DNA of 64,000 bases from an uncultured Candidatus Rokubacteria bacterium (GCA_963747235.1 CAVVEU010000033.1:338728-402727); one strand, 5' to 3'. Positions 28,650 to 36,016 are shown, counted from the stretch's first letter. A program made the numbers and translations. Notes: generated by a model from the sequence alone, not told the origin.

Positions 28650-29912
28650 CTAGTCGGTCGTGCGGTACTGACTCGGCGGCACCAGGCGGTACTTGGCGGG
28701 TCCGCCTTCACCACCAAGTCGGCGTAGTCGCGGTCGAAGTTGCCGCGTTTGCCGGACGGGATGTGCTCGAGCACCTCGACGCCGCGGATGTAGTAGCTGA
28801 AGCCCTTGTTGGCGCGGTCGTAGGCCTCGCTCTGCCCGCGCGCGGCCGAGCGAAGGATCTCGCCGGTCTGGCGCATCTTGTTGGCGGCGTCCTGCATGCG
28901 GTCGCGCAGCATCTGCTGGTTGAGCGACCACGAGCGCCACACGTTCAGCATCAGCGCGAAGTCGCGCTGGAAGACGCCGTCGGGCGCGGCCACCGTGGAG
29001 TAGTAGTAGGCCCAGGAGTTGTTGTCGATAGGCGCGGTGTTGACCAGCCCGAAGTGGTAGTACGGCCGGCCGGCGATGCGCGAGCGGGCCAGGATATAGG
29101 CGGCCTGGCCCGCGCCGGTGGGCGGCGGCGTGTTGACAGCGCTCCAGCACCTCGACGTTGGTCGTTCCCTGCCCGCCGCGGGCCGCCGTCTGCTGCGAGA
29201 TCGCCTGGCTCACCACCGGCACGGCCGCGGCCGGGTCGGCGATGAAGGGCAGATAGATCGCGCCGGCGACCGGGCCCACGAAGGTGGGCCGCACGATGAT
29301 CGGGAGGTAGATGCCCACGTCCACGAGCTGGCCCTGCGGGCCCGCCACGTCCACCGCGCCGTTGGCGTAGCCGCTGATGCGCCAGCCCGGCGGCACGCCG
29401 ATGGCCGCCTTGCCGTCGGGCGTGGTCTGCTGCTGGAGCGCCACCGGCCGCTGGGCCGGCCCGCCGCCGGGCACCTGGATGCCGCCGAGCTGGCGGGCCA
29501 TGGCCGGGAACGAGCGGACGATGTCCGCGGGCCGGTCGAAGAGGATCGCGACGCCGCCCCCGCCGCCGTCGTTGAGCTGCACGATCACGGCACCGCGCAC
29601 CGGGGTGCCCTGCAGGCGCGCGTCGAAGAAGGCCATGATGCCGCGGTCGGCGGGATCGCCGACGGCGCTCGAGACCGCCGGCGCGCCGTCGAAGTAGCCG
29701 CGCAGGGCGCCCAGCATGCCGCCCAGGACCGCGGCGGCGGAGCGGGCGTTGCCGCTGAAGGTGCCGGCGAGGGTCCGGCCGCCGGTGGGGCCGTTGACGG
29801 AGGCGAAGCCCGAGGGCGGCGGCCGCTCCGGCAGGGACGCCGCGCGCACGATGGCCGCGGGGAGGACGAGGCCTATCGCGAGCACGGCGATGAGGAGAGG
29901 TTTGCTGGTCAC
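28650..29912 (-). CDS. Secreted hypothetical protein (compensating frameshifts near 29140 and 28700)
   Basis: Signal peptide, host-like codon bias across joined frames; PDG..IGVPPGW segment and helical C-terminus. Confidence 0.65.
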   Translation of the reverse strand: MTSKPLLIAVLAIGLVLPAAIVRAASLPERPPPSGFASVNGPTGGRTLAGTFSGNARSAAAVLGGMLGALRGYFDGAPAVSSAVGDPADRGIMAFFDARLQGTPVRGAVIVQLNDGGGGGVAILFDRPADIVRSFPAMARQLGGIQVPGGGPAQRPVALQQQTTPDGKAAIGVPPGWRISGYANGAVDVAGPQGQLVDVGIYLPIIVRPTFVGPVAGAIYLPFIADPAAAVPVVSQAISQQTAARGGQGTTNVEVLERCQHAAAHRRGPGRLYPGPLAHRRPAVLPLRAGQHRAYRQQLLGLLLLHGGRARRRLPARLRADAERVALVVAQPADAARPHAGRRQQDAPDRRDPSLGRARAERGLRPRQQGLQLLHPRRRGARAHPVRQTRQLRPRLRRLGGEGGPAKYRLVPPSQYRTTD

Positions 29913-29962: not shown

Positions 29963-32072
29963 CTACTCCTCGGCGACGGTGACCGGGACCACCTCGACCT
30001 CGGCGTACTCCGTGTCGCAGGTCGGCGGACCGATTGGCTCGAGGCCTCCCTCATTGACGACCTGCCGGGTGTGCCGGGCAGACACATCGCGCACGAGGCG
30101 TCCCACCACCTGTCCGACCCGGTTGACATCCTCGGCGACGAATCCGGCCCGGGGGTCCACACACCCGGACACGGTGTCCGCCCCACACAGGACTGTGTCC
30201 CGCCCGTTGTCGTCCCGGATGAACGTGATGAGATTGACTCCGTAGATCACTTGCACGAAGTCCGCCAGCCCGTTGCCCAGCGGAGCCGTCTGCTGGAAGA
30301 ATCCATGCGGCTGATGAGTGAAGAGCGGCTGCTCCGTGCATGCCTCGATGCGCTCCGGCCACGCCGCCAGGATCAGCGGAATCGGGATGGTCACCTGTCG
30401 CTGCGCATCGAGGTCCGTCGTCTGGACGATCCGGCCGCCCTCGATGCTGCTCGAGAACGTGCTCGCTCCCGCCCAGTACATCGGAAAGAGATTGACGGCC
30501 GGGATGAACAGCACCGTCCGACCGGGCTTCCAGGCCAGCTGGACCCGCCCATCCTGATCGGTCACACCCGAGCTCAGCACCGCTCCGCTCTGCACGTCGA
30601 TCGCCTGGACGGCGGCCTCCCTGATGGGGCGTCCCGTCGCTCCGCTTGACCAGGCGGGCCACCATCATCGGCTCGATGAAGACCTGCCGTCCCACGACCG
30701 CGTCTCGCTCGCTCCCGAGGGCGCCGCGGAACACCAGCATGTACTTCCCGGGCTCCTTCGCAGGCGGGCTGCTCGGCGCCGACGAGCCTGGAGATCCTCG
30801 ACGAATGCCGACGGCGCAAGCGACTCTCGTCCACTGCGCTCCCGGCACGGGGCGCCGAGTGTCGCTGCCGTCGTCGTAGTACAAGGTGAACGTCCCGTCC
30901 ATGGCCTCGTCACTGCCGTTCCGGAGCCCGAACGACAGATCGTTCCCGGATGCGACTCATGAGCCCACGGAAGAAGTAGTCGAGGAGGGCCGTCGAGTAG
31001 GCGACTGCTCGGGGCACGAGCCGCTGGGCATAGTCACGATAGACGGCCTCATCGAGCGCGGGGCTCTCCCGGAATCGCGTCCAGTCGAGGTTGAACTGCT
31101 GCTGATAGTCGCGGAGCAGCCCGACGGTGGCCAGGCGATAGCCAGTGGCGCCGTCGGCCGTCTTGACGAAGTACCGGCGCTTGACGGTCGCTCCCCTGAA
31201 TGGTCACGTCGAAGTCCTGCTCCGTCACACTCGATCGATTCGGGTACGGAAACCGCTTCAGCGGGTCGACGTCGTTCTCGGTGAAGATCCGATCCTCGCT
31301 GAAGAAGTTCGCGTTCGTGTACTCGGCCAGGCCGATGAGCGCCCCCGTGGTGACCGCTGGGATTCCCGCCGACGTATCGGTCGGTGTCGATCAGCCGCGC
31401 GGTGGCCACCGGTGCCAGCGGGTTGCTGTCGAGCGCCTGCCAGCCAGGATCGGGCACGCCGGGCGTGTCGGGTGAACCGGCAAGCCACGCAGCGAAGGTA
31501 CTCTCGATCTTGTCCGTCGAACCTGATCGACCAGCGACTCGTAGTTGTAGAGGGCGTGCGGGTCGTTCCGCGTGTGCGCGGGTGACGCCGCATCCTGGAC
31601 CAGATGCACCTGCCGGCCCAGGCCCTCGAAGGTTCTCGTCAGCCTTGCCTCCCGGTCGGAGCGAGTCGGCCTGGTCAGCGCATCGAAGTACGCGTTGCGC
31701 ACGTCCTGCCAAGACCAACCCGATAGGCTCGTGTTCTGGCCCCAAAGAATGGACGACTGACCGACGCTTCCCAGCAGGCCCGCCGCCGACCAGTCTGCGA
31801 GTGGGTTGTGGAAGTGATTGAGGAACCGAAGAAAGTTGTCCTCACTTCGCCCGCCTTGACCGAGCCAAGTCGGTCAACACTTGACCACGAATGGCTGTGC
31901 CAAGGCCGCCGTCAACCCAAGTCGGACGCGGAGAATTTCATCCAACGAAGAACGCCCACCAGCGATTCGGGTAATCGCTTCGTGTGTCGCAATCTCGTAC
32001 CCGCTCGCAGCGGTGGTAGTGAGCAAGGGATACCCCAGGCCGAGCATTGCCAGACATCACATTTCGTTTCAT
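29963..32072 (-). CDS. Secreted tri-zinc phospholipase C / S1-P1 nuclease-fold protein with C-terminal beta-rich extension; multiple frameshifts
   Basis: Reconstructed: signal peptide, AASG-YEIATHEAIT, EDNFLRFLNHFHNP, LGRQVHLVQDAASPAHTRNDPH..YE, GLAEYTNANFFSED, LVPRAVAYSTALLDYFFRG; GGAG RBS. Confidence 0.7.
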
Positions 32073-32074
32073 AG

Positions 32075-32671
32075 CTACTCCGGTGGAGACAGTGGTTCAA
32101 GGCCAATCGCGACTCTTTCCGCGTTGAACCTGCGCACGAAGCTCAGGAAGATCCTTGAAGGGCGTGTCCGAGTAGCTGTGCGGATCGAAGAGGAAGAGAT
32201 GCTTCCGTCGCTCCTCCCTCCCTCCGAGGCGTGGCAACTCGACGATCGCTCCCGGCCGTTCGAAGATGCCGCCGATGAATCCTGTTGGCGACACGTGGCC
32301 TCTCGGAAACGATCCATACCCGGGCTGAAAAATCAGGAACTCCGGATGGTATGTCCGGCCGGGAGCTCCCTCCTCCACGTCCTTGGCGTCCAGGACGAAC
32401 CGTCCTTCCGAATCGGTGACCGTCTCCCGAACGGCGTAGTGCTCGGACACCGAGTGAAACGGATACACGCGGTTCCGTCGCCAGAGCGCCACGACCACGG
32501 CACCGGCCAGCGGAGCCTTGGTCGCCGCGTCGATCACCTGCCCCCGGTACGGCCCGCGCGGGCGACCCAGGTACCGGTCCCTCAGCTCGGTTTCCTGCGA
32601 CCAGGCCGCCATCGGGCCACAGCCGTGACAAGCACGCAGCACAGCGCAACCACCCGAACCCAGGCCCTCAT
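32075..32671 (-). CDS. Secreted carboxypeptidase-regulatory-like domain protein (paralog 2), frameshifted
   Basis: GPYRGQVIDAATKAPLAGAVVVALW...ETVTDSEGRF...IFQPGY. Confidence 0.7.
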
Positions 32672-33271
32672 CGCCCACCCGGGGCAGCCGGCTTCATGGG
32701 CTTGCGCGCCGAGGCTCTCCAGCTCGAAGCGGATCAGCTCCGAGGTCTCGGGCAGCTCCGTCGGCGGGAAGAGCTGGGCGGCGCTGAGCATCGCGACGAA
32801 GGTGTTGAAGGCCTCGGCGCGATCCTCATAGTCCGTGACCGGCGTGAGCCGCGCCGATGCCCCCGCCTCGGCGAACCGCGCGGCGGCGACGCCGGGCGGG
32901 AAGAGCTGCGGCCGACTCGGCAACGGCGCGTACCCCGGCCGGAAGACCACGATGCGCGGGGCGAATGTCCGGGGCGGCAAGCGGCCCTCCACGCTCGCCA
33001 CGTCGTGGACGAACTCGCCATGCTCGTTCGTGAAGACCTCGCGCGCCCCGGAGAGGCGCCGCAGGCCCTGGATCTGGTCGTCGAGGCGCTGCCACAGGAT
33101 GATCACCGCGGCCGACGGCAGGGGCTGCCCGGTCTTGTCGTCCACGACCACGCCCCGATAGGGCCCCGCCGAGGGCCGAAGCGGCGTGTCGTCATCCTGC
33201 GCGGCGCTCCGCCCCGCGCCGACCAGCACCGTGAGCATGATCGCTGCGATCAGAACACGCGTAGTCGCCAT
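32668..33271 (-). CDS. Secreted carboxypeptidase-regulatory-like domain protein (paralog 1)
   Basis: Signal peptide; GPYRGVVVDDKTGQPLPSAAVIILW...EVFTNEHGEF...VFRPGY. Confidence 0.7.
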
Positions 33272-35811
33272 ACACCGTCCGTGTCGATGACGAAGAGAAC
33301 GTGGAAGGAGTAGAGAGTGCCCCGCTGGACCGCCTTCAGCTCGTACTCGGCCGCACGGTCGAGCACCTTGACCGGAGTGATGGCGCCGAGGGCAGCCGCC
33401 ACCTGCGGCAGCGCGCCGACGCCCGCCAGCGCGGTGAGCTGATCGCGGTAGGCGTCGCGGGAAGCGCCCGCGAAGAGGGCCACCGCGGCCGGCACGTCGG
33501 CCCGGCTCAGCGCGTCGCGGAGCCCGCTCCACCGTGCCTGGAGCAGCGTCTCGAGGGCGGCCGGGTCGAGCACCTGGACCAGCCCGGCGGCGGTGACGGC
33601 CGCGCCTTGATCGTCGACGACGCGCACGCGCGGGTAGAAGAGCCCCGGCGCGGTATAGGTGAACGTCTGGCCGTCGAGCGTGGGGCCGTCGAAGTCCATC
33701 TGCCCGTCGCCATCGAAGTCCAGCTCGATGCGCGCGGGAACGGGCCCGCCGATCAGAGAGAACGAGGTCGTCAGCGGCACGCCTCCTGTCCCAGGATGAG
33801 CGCGGAGCGCCAGAGCGTTCTCGCCGAGGTCGACCACGGTGACCGTGACGGCATGCGTGGCCGTGCCCCCCGACTCGGTCGTGGCCACGGCGGTGAGCGT
33901 GACCGACGGTGCCGTCACCGGCACCATGGCCGCGAACGAGCTCCCCTGCCTCGCCGCCACGACCCCATTGACGGTGACACCCACATCGATGCCACCAGGA
34001 GCGACCGTACCACGGACCAGCAGGAGTCCCGAAGGAACGGTCGCGCCGCCGGCCGGCTCCGTGATCGCCACCTGCACGCCGCCGCCCACCGTGAAGGTCC
34101 GGCGCGCCGGGGAGGGATCCTCGTTGCCCGCCAGGTCGCGCGCCTTCACCTCGAACGCGTGGGATCCCGAGCCGAGGCCGGCCAGCGTGGCGCTGGTGGC
34201 CGCGGCGAACGGGGTGAAGGCGCCCCCGTCGAGCCGCCAGGCGAAGGCCAGCCCGGCGGCCGCGGTCAGGTTGTCCGTGCCGACGAACGTGAACGTGGCG
34301 GACGGCTCGCTGACCGTGTCGACCGGCCCGCCGGTGATCTGCGTGTCCGGCGGGGTGTTGTCCACGATCACCGTCCGGCTCGCGGTCCCCGCGTTCTGCG
34401 CCTGGTCCATGACCGTCGCCGTCAGCGTGTGGATCCCGTCCGCCACCGTGGCCGTGTTCCAGGATGCGGTCGCGGTGATCGGGCTCGCCGGGGGTTGCGG
34501 CACGAGGGTCGCGGTCAGCTCCTGGGTGGCGCCACGCAGGGTGACCGTCGCCACCGCCCCGCCCGCGTCCGTCGCCAGCGCCTGGACCGTGACGGGGCCG
34601 CGCAGGTGCGCGTTGGCGGCGGGGGCCTGGAAGACCACCGCGGGCGGCTGGCCGTCACTCCGCGCCTCCGCCGCGCCGATGTCGAAGCGCGCCGGGCCGC
34701 CCGCGCTCCCGGCGGCCGGTCGCACCGATTCGCCGAGGTAGTCCGCCTCGAAGCGCGCGTTGAGATCGGGCGTCAGCACGGTGCGCGGATCGAGGCCGCG
34801 GTCGATCAGCGGCGACGCCGCCGCCGGGGTTGGATCGTCGTCGAGCGAGCCCGAGGCGTGGTCGGCGCCCGCCAGGTCCCGATAGACGAGCGCGGGATTG
34901 TCGCATCCGGGGCTCGCCGTCACGCCGGGGCCCTCGGACCCGCTGGGCGTGAGATTGGCGCCGTCGGCGCCGTCCAGCACCGGCCCGGCGATCTCGCCGA
35001 GCCGGTTGCCGCAGATCAGGTTGTTGCGGAGCACGATCGCCAGGGGCAGCGGCGCGGTCTCCCGCCTCACGCCCACCCGGCCGCCGGTGGAGCCCGTATG
35101 AGCCCCGTTGCCGGTGATGGCATTGTTGATGAGCAGGAAGACGTGCGACCGCGTCGCGCTGACTCCGTTCCAGCCATTGCCGTGGATCGTGTTCTGCACG
35201 AGGGTGTGCGGCCCGCCTTCTCCGTCGAGCGTCGCGATGCCGTTGCGGCCGTTGGCGAGCACGAGATTGTTGACGATCAACGTGCCGACGTTCCCGGCGC
35301 CGATCGTGATGCCGCCGTCGCACCCCGTGCCGCCGTTGCCCACGATGCGGTTTCGCTCGATGTGCACCGCGAGATTGCGATCGCCGCCGCCCGCCAGCGC
35401 GATCGCGGCGCCGCCGGCGCCCGTGATGGTCAGCCCGCGGATGGTGACGAAGCGCGATTGCCGGATCTGGATGGCGTGCCCGGCCGCGCACTGGCTGACC
35501 GCGCCACGCAGCACCACGCTGCCGACCGCCGCCGCCGGATCGGCCTGGATCCGGATGCGCGTCGCCGGATTCGTGGCGCTCGAGTTCTTGGCATTCACGC
35601 TGACCTGCTCGACGTAGCTGCCGGCCTGGATCTGGACCGTGTCGCCGGGCTGCGCGGCGTTCACCGCGGCCTGGATGCTGCCGTAGCAGGGCGCGGCGCC
35701 GCCGCAGGTGACGTCCGTGCGGTTGACGTGGCGAACGATGCCCGCCTCGCCCAGACCGGCGGCCGCAACCGTGAACAGGATCCCGTGGAGAAGCCCGATG
35801 ATGATGCGCAT
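33250..35811 (-). CDS. Large secreted protein: right-handed beta-helix + Ig-like repeats + PKD-like domain + helical/NTF2-like C-terminal domain
   Basis: Signal peptide; SIQAAVNAAQPGDTVQI and NN-rich PbH1 repeats; WNTATVADGIHTLTA, VDNTPPDT, FEVKARDLAGN; DFDGDG, FTYTAPGLFYPRVRV; C-terminal DTDGVWRLRVF. Confidence 0.75.
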   Translation of the reverse strand: MRIIIGLLHGILFTVAAAGLGEAGIVRHVNRTDVTCGGAAPCYGSIQAAVNAAQPGDTVQIQAGSYVEQVSVNAKNSSATNPATRIRIQADPAAAVGSVVLRGAVSQCAAGHAIQIRQSRFVTIRGLTITGAGGAAIALAGGGDRNLAVHIERNRIVGNGGTGCDGGITIGAGNVGTLIVNNLVLANGRNGIATLDGEGGPHTLVQNTIHGNGWNGVSATRSHVFLLINNAITGNGAHTGSTGGRVGVRRETAPLPLAIVLRNNLICGNRLGEIAGPVLDGADGANLTPSGSEGPGVTASPGCDNPALVYRDLAGADHASGSLDDDPTPAAASPLIDRGLDPRTVLTPDLNARFEADYLGESVRPAAGSAGGPARFDIGAAEARSDGQPPAVVFQAPAANAHLRGPVTVQALATDAGGAVATVTLRGATQELTATLVPQPPASPITATASWNTATVADGIHTLTATVMDQAQNAGTASRTVIVDNTPPDTQITGGPVDTVSEPSATFTFVGTDNLTAAAGLAFAWRLDGGAFTPFAAATSATLAGLGSGSHAFEVKARDLAGNEDPSPARRTFTVGGGVQVAITEPAGGATVPSGLLLVRGTVAPGGIDVGVTVNGVVAARQGSSFAAMVPVTAPSVTLTAVATTESGGTATHAVTVTVVDLGENALALRAHPGTGGVPLTTSFSLIGGPVPARIELDFDGDGQMDFDGPTLDGQTFTYTAPGLFYPRVRVVDDQGAAVTAAGLVQVLDPAALETLLQARWSGLRDALSRADVPAAVALFAGASRDAYRDQLTALAGVGALPQVAAALGAITPVKVLDRAAEYELKAVQRGTLYSFHVLFVIDTDGVWRLRVF

Positions 35812-36016
35812 GCCGTCCGCAAGAGCAGCGCGCGTGCCACGACACGCCAGGATCCGATCGGCAAGCGTCACAGGGGTTTGGATCGGCGCGGCGGACGCCA
35901 CTTCACAGCCGGCATTGCACTGACGCCCCGTTCAGTGCCCCGCGCGCAGGGCACTCGTCGGCGGTGGCCGAGCCCTGGCGCTTGCCGTACACTCCGCGAG
36001 GGAGGAGAGAGCCTCG

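Follow-up and report, generated by a model that had tools for sequence, protein, structure and literature searches.

The known zinc-dependent phospholipases C have tryptophan as their first mature residue, and in P1 nuclease a short spacing separates the first mature residue from the first histidine. Exported lipases and nucleases are also known in enzyme-plus-accessory pairs, including Tle-Tli of the type VI secretion system (T6SS) and PlcH-PlcR of Pseudomonas. In the sections of Zhang et al. (2012, PMC3482391) that concern Het-C / Tox-HET-C, these proteins were predicted to have the phospholipase C / S1-P1 nuclease fold with a metal site and the motif HxxxDxxxH, and Het-C was predicted to be a secreted hydrolase in conflict systems. 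Here we analysed a cassette of four genes in a stretch of 64,000 nucleotides (nt) from an uncultured Candidatus Rokubacteria bacterium (GCA_963747235.1, CAVVEU010000033.1:338728-402727; the whole stretch is called the window). The cassette encodes a large scaffold protein, two small proteins (parB and parC; par for either) and an enzyme. Its core, in the order scaffold tail, small protein, enzyme, is a real, widespread and unannotated module that recurs across phyla. The region is read here, with a confidence slightly above even, as a vertically inherited operon encoding a conserved Sec-exported three-component module, whose members act jointly and whose enzyme frame was broken by assembly. 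The first component would be the large protein, with a lineage-variable ligand-binding head and a conserved tail of immunoglobulin-like (Ig), PKD and terminal domains; the second would be a transthyretin-like partner of ~200 amino acids (aa), present in two copies in the window; and the third would be an enzyme of ~700 aa, whose first domain appears to be a diverged tri-zinc phosphodiesterase of the phospholipase C / S1-P1 nuclease superfamily. The features of the locus are as follows.

33250-35811, minus strand: scaffold gene (ATG 35811, TGA 33250-33252; 853 aa), an uninterrupted open reading frame (ORF) with a signal peptide, a right-handed beta-helix head and Ig-like domains.
32674-33271 (low end approximate), minus strand: parB (ATG 33271), an exported small protein of ~199 aa, diverged paralog of parC.
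32075-32671, minus strand: parC (ATG 32671, TAG 32075-32077), an exported small protein of ~198 aa.
29963-32072, minus strand: enzyme gene (ATG 32072, TAG 29963-29965), ~700 aa if read through.
About 30960-31999, minus strand: predicted catalytic domain of the enzyme, tri-zinc phospholipase C / S1-P1-nuclease-like, after the signal peptide and before three beta-sandwich domains, one of them transthyretin-like.
28650-29912, minus strand: downstream gene for an exported protein of ~420 aa, 50 nt past the enzyme stop.
35812-35923: divergent intergenic region of 112 nt between the scaffold gene and a PuuE-like polysaccharide deacetylase gene, presumed to be the promoter region of the cassette.

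The positions of the four minus-strand genes given in the preliminary description of this DNA agreed with the ORFs, and its account of their tight coupling held: the start of parB overlaps the end of the scaffold gene by 22 nt, the gap between parC and the enzyme gene is 2 nt, and the cassette genes are joined by overlaps or 2-nt spacing. The signal-peptide-like starts that it had reported were confirmed on all four proteins (4/4). The flanking genes are of ordinary type, and encode a major facilitator superfamily (MFS) transporter, the PuuE-like deacetylase, a sugar dehydrogenase, a radical SAM protein and an amino-acid ABC transporter. There was no mobile-element gene in or beside the cassette, and an Rfam scan of the window gave 0 matches. 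In agreement with the preliminary description, no family of the type V, type VI or type VII secretion systems (T5SS, T6SS, T7SS) or of RHS appeared in Pfam scans of the cassette and its flanks, other genomic sites not having been searched. Compared with Tle-Tli and PlcH-PlcR, the locus is alike in that an exported hydrolase active on membranes or nucleic acids stands beside small exported partners. It is unlike them in that the families are unrelated, secretion-system genes are missing and the scaffold tail adds a third conserved component.

The conservation of the module was evaluated in the best 80 of 270 confirmed loci, taken from one-genome-per-species contigs; these are the most query-like loci, so distant members may differ. 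They belong to named metagenome-assembled genomes (MAGs) of Methylomirabilota, Nitrospirota, Desulfobacterota/'Deltaproteobacteria', Binatia and others. A long enzyme match was present in 78 of the 80. A par ORF stood directly upstream on the same strand in 68 of the 70 loci with at least 700 nt of upstream sequence: 53 loci had a single copy, 12 had two, 2 had three and 1 had four. The remaining 2 loci had none. Among the 59 loci with at least 1800 nt upstream, the scaffold tail was present in 56, and tail and par together in 55. No other neighbour family was common to the surveyed loci. Thus the homologs co-occur across phyla and the paralog number varies from 0 to 4 per locus, both of which had been named beforehand as signs of a system. 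Within the genus of the window, the whole order scaffold-parB-parC-enzyme-downstream gene was retained. In 61 related genomes, including the unpublished genome G029, the enzyme fragment was found in 33, the par profile in 34 and both in 28; matches to the enzyme or par singly were mostly at contig ends, and of eight odd places examined, 4 were cut by contig ends.

No enzyme match was obtained in 11 of 20 congeners, and a truly patchy distribution within the genus was considered and rejected. In four of five checked genomes the cassette was cut by a contig end, and in the fifth the contig stops just past the flanking PuuE-like gene. Because four of these five enzyme-less congeners hold the start of the cassette beside the PuuE-like gene at a contig end, the cassette is probably general in the genus. 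The short-read contigs in question (L107-L111, from congeners G001, G012, G003, G019 and G004) end in the scaffold, in parC or past the flanking gene, which suggests strain-level heterogeneity or assembly difficulty at the cassette.

No description of the operon was found in the literature searched (supplements lay outside the search), and the cassette proteins are named 'hypothetical protein' in every source entry examined. The labels Candidatus Rokubacteria and Methylomirabilota are those of relatives matched by sequence, and the MAG holding the window comprises 5.57 Mb in 42 contigs with ~71% G+C.

To characterise the enzyme family, an exhaustive HMMER search of representative clusters was made with the intact enzyme ortholog of locus L016 as query. 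At E<=0.001 it returned 4251 clusters, of which 2640 remained at a cut-off of 1e-10 and 956 at 1e-30. The part common to the family is the first ~455 residues, and total length ranges from ~400 to ~1100 residues. A 66-sequence alignment (A1) was used as input to AlphaFold2, and the model of the intact ortholog reached a predicted local distance difference test score (pLDDT) of 92.5 and a predicted template modelling score (pTM) of 0.86. In this model the catalytic domain has ~345 residues, including a ~140-residue insertion with a beta-hairpin, and is followed by beta-sandwich domains, of which residues 463-563 are transthyretin-like (Z 7-8.5). The tails are variable among relatives.

The fold of the catalytic domain was found only in an exhaustive VIA-align search against 48,161 chains, because Foldseek with the whole model returned just generic beta-sandwich matches to the C-terminal domains and missed it. 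The best chain was the Clostridium absonum alpha-toxin (1olp; Z 17.2, root-mean-square deviation 3.2, 208 aligned residues), followed by the phospholipases C of Bacillus cereus (1ah7; Z 16.2) and Listeria (8cqm; Z 15.1), S1 nuclease (5fb9; Z 13.9), SmNuc1 (8qjl; Z 13.7) and a plant bifunctional nuclease (3w52; Z 12.7). These top six chains belong to one superfamily, and the next chain scored Z 8.5. The tri-zinc phospholipase/nuclease fold proposed for the enzyme from its sequence was thus recovered in the model. Moreover, the alignments to all three phospholipases begin at residue 22 of the model and residue 1 of the chain, and residue 22 is the first residue past the predicted signal-peptide cut. 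Position 22 of the alignment (62 rows) is occupied by Y in 42 rows, F in 9, L in 9 and W in 2, and position 21 by A, G or S in 60 of 62. The residues H27, D75, H83, H153, D157, H163, D167 and H169 are found in every non-gap row, and E74 (61/62), H85 (60/62) and E175 (62/63) are nearly invariant. These His, Asp and Glu residues are candidate zinc ligands, and a one-to-one mapping onto the nine known ligands is tentative.

At the sequence level, the A1 profile matched one protein among the PDB sequences, the Listeria phospholipase C (E 0.0029), aligned at HF.NP and HxxxDxxxxxH, and a single enzyme sequence gave 0 hits. The Pfam family of zinc-dependent phospholipases C (PF00882) gave sub-threshold matches in 15 of the 66 members (best E 0.0034). 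There was no PF00882 match at E<=1 in the intact ortholog, and no member exceeded the gathering score. Neither Het-C nor S1-P1 (PF02265) matched the ortholog or the 66 relatives in Pfam, nine long family members had no Pfam hit whatever, and NCBIfam gave 0 families for the enzyme, both small proteins and the downstream protein. These results indicate that the enzyme family is a new, distant branch of the superfamily, nearer to the phospholipases than to the nucleases.

The likeness to the zinc-dependent phospholipases C thus consists of the all-alpha fold over ~208 residues, export by a signal peptide with the first mature residue aligned to residue 1, the two sequence blocks, and the near-invariant set of candidate His/Asp/Glu ligands. 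The differences are the match below the PF00882 threshold, a first mature residue that is mostly Tyr, the long insertion with three beta-sandwich domains or other variable tails behind it, and the two obligate neighbour genes in diderm uncultivated lineages. With the S1/P1 nucleases the enzyme shares the superfamily fold, and the spacing from its first mature residue to its first histidine (Y22...H27) is short as in P1 nuclease; it differs in the lower Z, the lack of a sequence-level match, the other tails and the operon context. Set against Het-C as treated in the same sections of PMC3482391, the enzyme has the motif HxxxDxxxxxH and not HxxxDxxxH, lacks a Pfam Het-C match, and carries its domain at the N terminus, unattached to T6SS, Photorhabdus virulence cassette (PVC) or RHS carriers.

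The two ~200-aa proteins described as paralogs are about 31-33% identical (E about 1e-18), and residues 1-190 of parB show 90-92% identity to its orthologs in congeners. A weak CarboxypepD_reg match was obtained in parB, and PF13620 reached 24.6 bits on a small protein against a cut-off of 32.3. An alignment of 41 small proteins (A2) comprises a signal peptide, a block VVDAETK.PIEGAVV ... E..TD..G.F ... F.IFKPGY and a helical segment ELP.L..REER ... N.ER..LGL; across the alignment, 4 columns are invariant and 9 nearly so. In the model of a parC ortholog (pLDDT 90.7), a beta-sandwich that appears to be of the transthyretin-like / CarboxypepD_reg type is followed by C-terminal helices. The model matched the N-terminal extension of SusC (9hfj, Z 7.8), the transthyretin-like domain of carboxypeptidase D (5aq0, Z 7.1) and 1qmu (Z 6.9), a range of Z in which common arrangements also score. 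The signal peptide closes with a lipobox-like [GAS]C, as in lipoproteins, in 13 of the 41 small proteins and in neither of the two of this genus.

Within the genus, the mean pairwise identity is 69% for the scaffold, 68% for parB, 63% for parC and 67% for the enzyme, compared to 87-96% among congeners for the flanking PuuE-like protein; the whole cassette evolves fast, and par is no outlier. The single par of other lineages, the canonical partner adjacent to the enzyme, is more like parC than parB. The A/T-richer codon endings remarked on earlier in the enzyme and the adjacent paralog are real: the G+C content of third codon positions (GC3) in the window is 0.75-0.86 for parC and the enzyme pieces and 0.91-0.93 for the scaffold and parB. 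In congeners it is 0.67-0.79 for parC (four), 0.76-0.89 for the enzyme (five) and 0.87-0.95 for the scaffold, parB and the downstream gene. A compositional seam therefore lies inside the operon, at 29963-32671 and in the L013-L018 orthologs. From the lower GC3 and the likeness of parC to the single par of other lineages, we infer that the parC-enzyme pair may have a different history from the scaffold-parB pair.

The beta-helix and Ig domains ascribed to the scaffold were matched in the window copy (Beta_helix 1.1e-9, Big_7 3.1e-7, NosD 3.2e-5), and the PKD domain also ascribed to it gave a weak match in an ortholog only. The part shared across lineages is the last ~270 residues, which comprise a Glucodextran_B-like Ig domain, a PKD domain and a terminal domain of ~100 aa. 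The latter ends in ...DGVWRLRVF in the window and in ...DG[IL]W[RK]I..F in the alignment of scaffold tails (A3). Five representatives of the terminal domain gave no Pfam hit at E<=10, apart from one protein that weakly matched unrelated families, and a PDB profile search gave nothing over this domain with E below 0.5, its hits being confined to the Ig/PKD part. The terminal domain might, speculatively, be NTF2-like. The heads are lineage-specific: beta-helix in the genus of the window; NHL / beta-propeller in other Rokubacteria and Methylomirabilis; and fn3, TSP3 repeats, PKD, propellers and Lcl_C in Nitrospirota and 'Deltaproteobacteria'. The downstream protein of ~420 aa belongs to no Pfam or NCBIfam family. 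Its gene is syntenic within the genus only, with matches in 10 loci that are all close relatives, and lies outside the cross-phylum core.

In the window the coding sequence of the enzyme jumps among three frames: it changes frame at least 6 times and contains an in-frame TGA (31874-31876), so that it appears shattered across the ORF track as the preliminary description had noted. In parB, a 1-nt insertion near 32705 removes the stop and the assembled frame runs to 32582; parC is frame-shifted near 32600-32621 and near 32140, and the downstream gene near 29134. Frame breaks are spread widely over the window, for example in genes near 58300-52000, 45600-44400 and 29900-28650. The intact enzyme orthologs have open frames of 671-724 aa in six congeneric genomes. 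Compared with the closest ortholog, in G013, the enzyme gene of the window contains single extra bases at ~31358, 31201, 30957, 30821, 30791, 30781 and 30622, plus other indels, and the 2.6-kb scaffold gene shows no indel against its G013 ortholog. A tblastn search of the window enzyme with orthologs returned one low-identity high-scoring segment pair, which left the frames unresolved.

These breaks are more probably errors of assembly, and on this point our confidence is good. The MAG of the window and G013 are both few-contig assemblies. Of the 33 G013 ORFs matched in the window, 10 were frame-broken there (18 switches), and in the reverse comparison 15 of 39 window ORFs were frame-broken in G013 (19 switches), so the breaks hit many unrelated genes in both MAGs. 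Contigs matching the stretch were obtained from four soil metagenome runs; they represent relatives 90-95% alike and not the source strain, and leave about 31380-32400 uncovered. All related short-read contigs that cover 30622, 30781, 30821 and 30954 lack the extra base of the window, and the extra base at 31199 is missing in one X3 contig and two X4 contigs. Furthermore, the fragments retain YEIATHE, EDNFLRFLNHFHNP and HLVQDAASPAHTRNDPH...YE, and thereby all candidate ligand motifs. The enzyme pieces showed 88% aa identity to G013, and because the intact scaffold is equally close at 88%, there is no sign of relaxed constraint on the enzyme. That the enzyme gene, and perhaps parC too, is a true decaying pseudogene in the source strain is rather unlikely. 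We still carry this alternative because the breaks are in local excess, with the at least 6 frame changes and the TGA falling within 2.1 kb at about ten times the mean density of the window, and because the source reads were not found among public runs (the best run held 0.18 of the sampled words). The indels of the enzyme gene also lie outside long homopolymers, and the cassette region has the lowest G+C of its neighbourhood in the window; low GC3, however, is common to the intact orthologs too.

The joint reading of the region was then weighed against two explanations of what the genes do. It is favoured because the three-gene order and the co-occurrence across phyla are hard to explain otherwise. 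The alternative of nutrient scavenging without a complex holds that the enzyme serves, once exported, to release phosphate or nucleosides as a nuclease or phosphodiesterase, and that its neighbours are merely co-transcribed envelope proteins. The matches to the S1/P1-type nuclease fold, the origin of the hosts from soil, sediment and groundwater MAGs, and the ordinary transport and metabolic genes on the flanks are consistent with it. We regard it as quite improbable: strict order and near-obligate co-occurrence with no other common neighbour would not be expected of passengers, the phospholipase Z values exceed those of the nucleases, and the sequence-level matches are to phospholipase C only. 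In a toxin-immunity system, the enzyme would be exported to act as an antagonistic lipase or nuclease, the small proteins would guard the envelope of the producer as periplasmic immunity proteins or inhibitors, and the large protein would aim or present the enzyme; this explanation is unlikely, if less so. The nearest solved structures are membrane-damaging phospholipases, and the related Het-C domain was proposed as a toxin domain in the sections of PMC3482391 that treat it. par shares the compartment of the enzyme, is translationally coupled just upstream and is its almost constant companion, in 0 to 4 copies. The scaffold heads and enzyme tails vary, and the short-read contigs of congeners tend to break within the cassette, suggesting strain variation; tandem units of par and truncated enzyme before the full enzyme in some Nitrospirota loci recall orphan cassettes. 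The layout of a polymorphic toxin/immunity locus, which had been proposed from the sequence, was nevertheless not supported, because the catalytic domain is N-terminal and conserved, par is upstream and conserved across phyla, and delivery markers are absent. The catalytic domain follows the signal peptide directly and is not a swapped, variable C-terminal tip, and the gene immediately downstream of the enzyme is genus-specific. Against toxin-immunity also stand the conserved columns of par, its within-genus divergence, which is like that of the other three proteins (63% vs 67-69%), the lack of secretion-system, RHS and mobile-element genes in or beside the cassette, and the small number of orphan par genes. 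A bolder form of this explanation is doubtful to the same degree. It would make the cassette a Sec-dependent antagonism or predation module of uncultivated diderms (Methylomirabilota, Nitrospirota, Desulfobacterota and others), in which the scaffold with its exchangeable head delivers the phospholipase C-like enzyme to foreign membranes, par is the cognate inhibitor or immunity protein that keeps the enzyme harmless in the periplasm of the producer, and the tandem units reflect cassette turnover.

Under the favoured three-component reading, the enzyme would be inactive until export and removal of its signal peptide, and would then hydrolyse a phosphodiester outside the cytoplasm, acting there jointly with its upstream partner and the scaffold. 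The exchangeable head of the scaffold would select a target, surface or substrate, and the role of the small protein would be to hold the enzyme, anchor it or keep it in check. The substrate is probably a phospholipid head group; a nucleic acid or nucleotide is considerably less probable, and some other substrate less probable again. Several observations weigh against this reading, among them the excess of breaks in the enzyme gene and the missing source reads mentioned above. Contact among scaffold, par and enzyme was not seen in any result; a complex prediction (enzyme 22-462 with scaffold tail and par) gave a median of 0.55, compared to 0.69 for a control with the enzyme replaced, and speaks neither for nor against binding. 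Expression data were not found, the cassette stretch occurring in no public RNA run. The fold fails to separate lipid from nucleic-acid hydrolysis, with no Pfam model above threshold to assist. In G059 (L113, G059:C22:105000-114000), scaffold tail and par have no detectable enzyme within 4.8 kb, lone par genes occur in G046 and G042, and G057 holds a degraded enzyme remnant without par. As a weaker point, no par-enzyme fusion was found; there were 3 longer par relatives, none with an enzyme domain.

Two further observations were made in the survey. In a Nitrospirota MAG (L084:4807-11443), and also in L069, L085, L090 and L092, tandem units of a small protein and a truncated enzyme precede the full-length enzyme. 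The truncated enzymes have 208-278 aa with their own signal peptide and metal motifs, and the small proteins of the repeated units hardly differ from one another, a pattern suggestive of recent duplication or of turnover of the cassette. In addition, cassette contigs were found under the labels of a Klebsiella pneumoniae MAG (L050), Limnocylindria (L032) and Gemmatimonadales (L034); between the Rokubacteria enzyme and those of L032 and L034 the identity is 68-69%. These labels would seem to be better explained by mis-binning than by transfer.

For the MAG of the window, these results mean that suspected pseudogenes need a read-level check, since broken genes there are probably for the most part assembly errors. 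More generally, they provide a testable function for thousands of 'hypothetical' proteins, that of a diverged tri-zinc phospholipase C / nuclease-type enzyme with two near-obligate partners, in a family seated in lineages of soil, sediment and groundwater without a cultured model. Should the enzyme turn out to be regulated or aimed by its partners, the module would represent a novel way in which diderms handle a membrane- or nucleic-acid-active hydrolase in their envelope, and could bear on phosphorus acquisition or microbial conflict in such environments.

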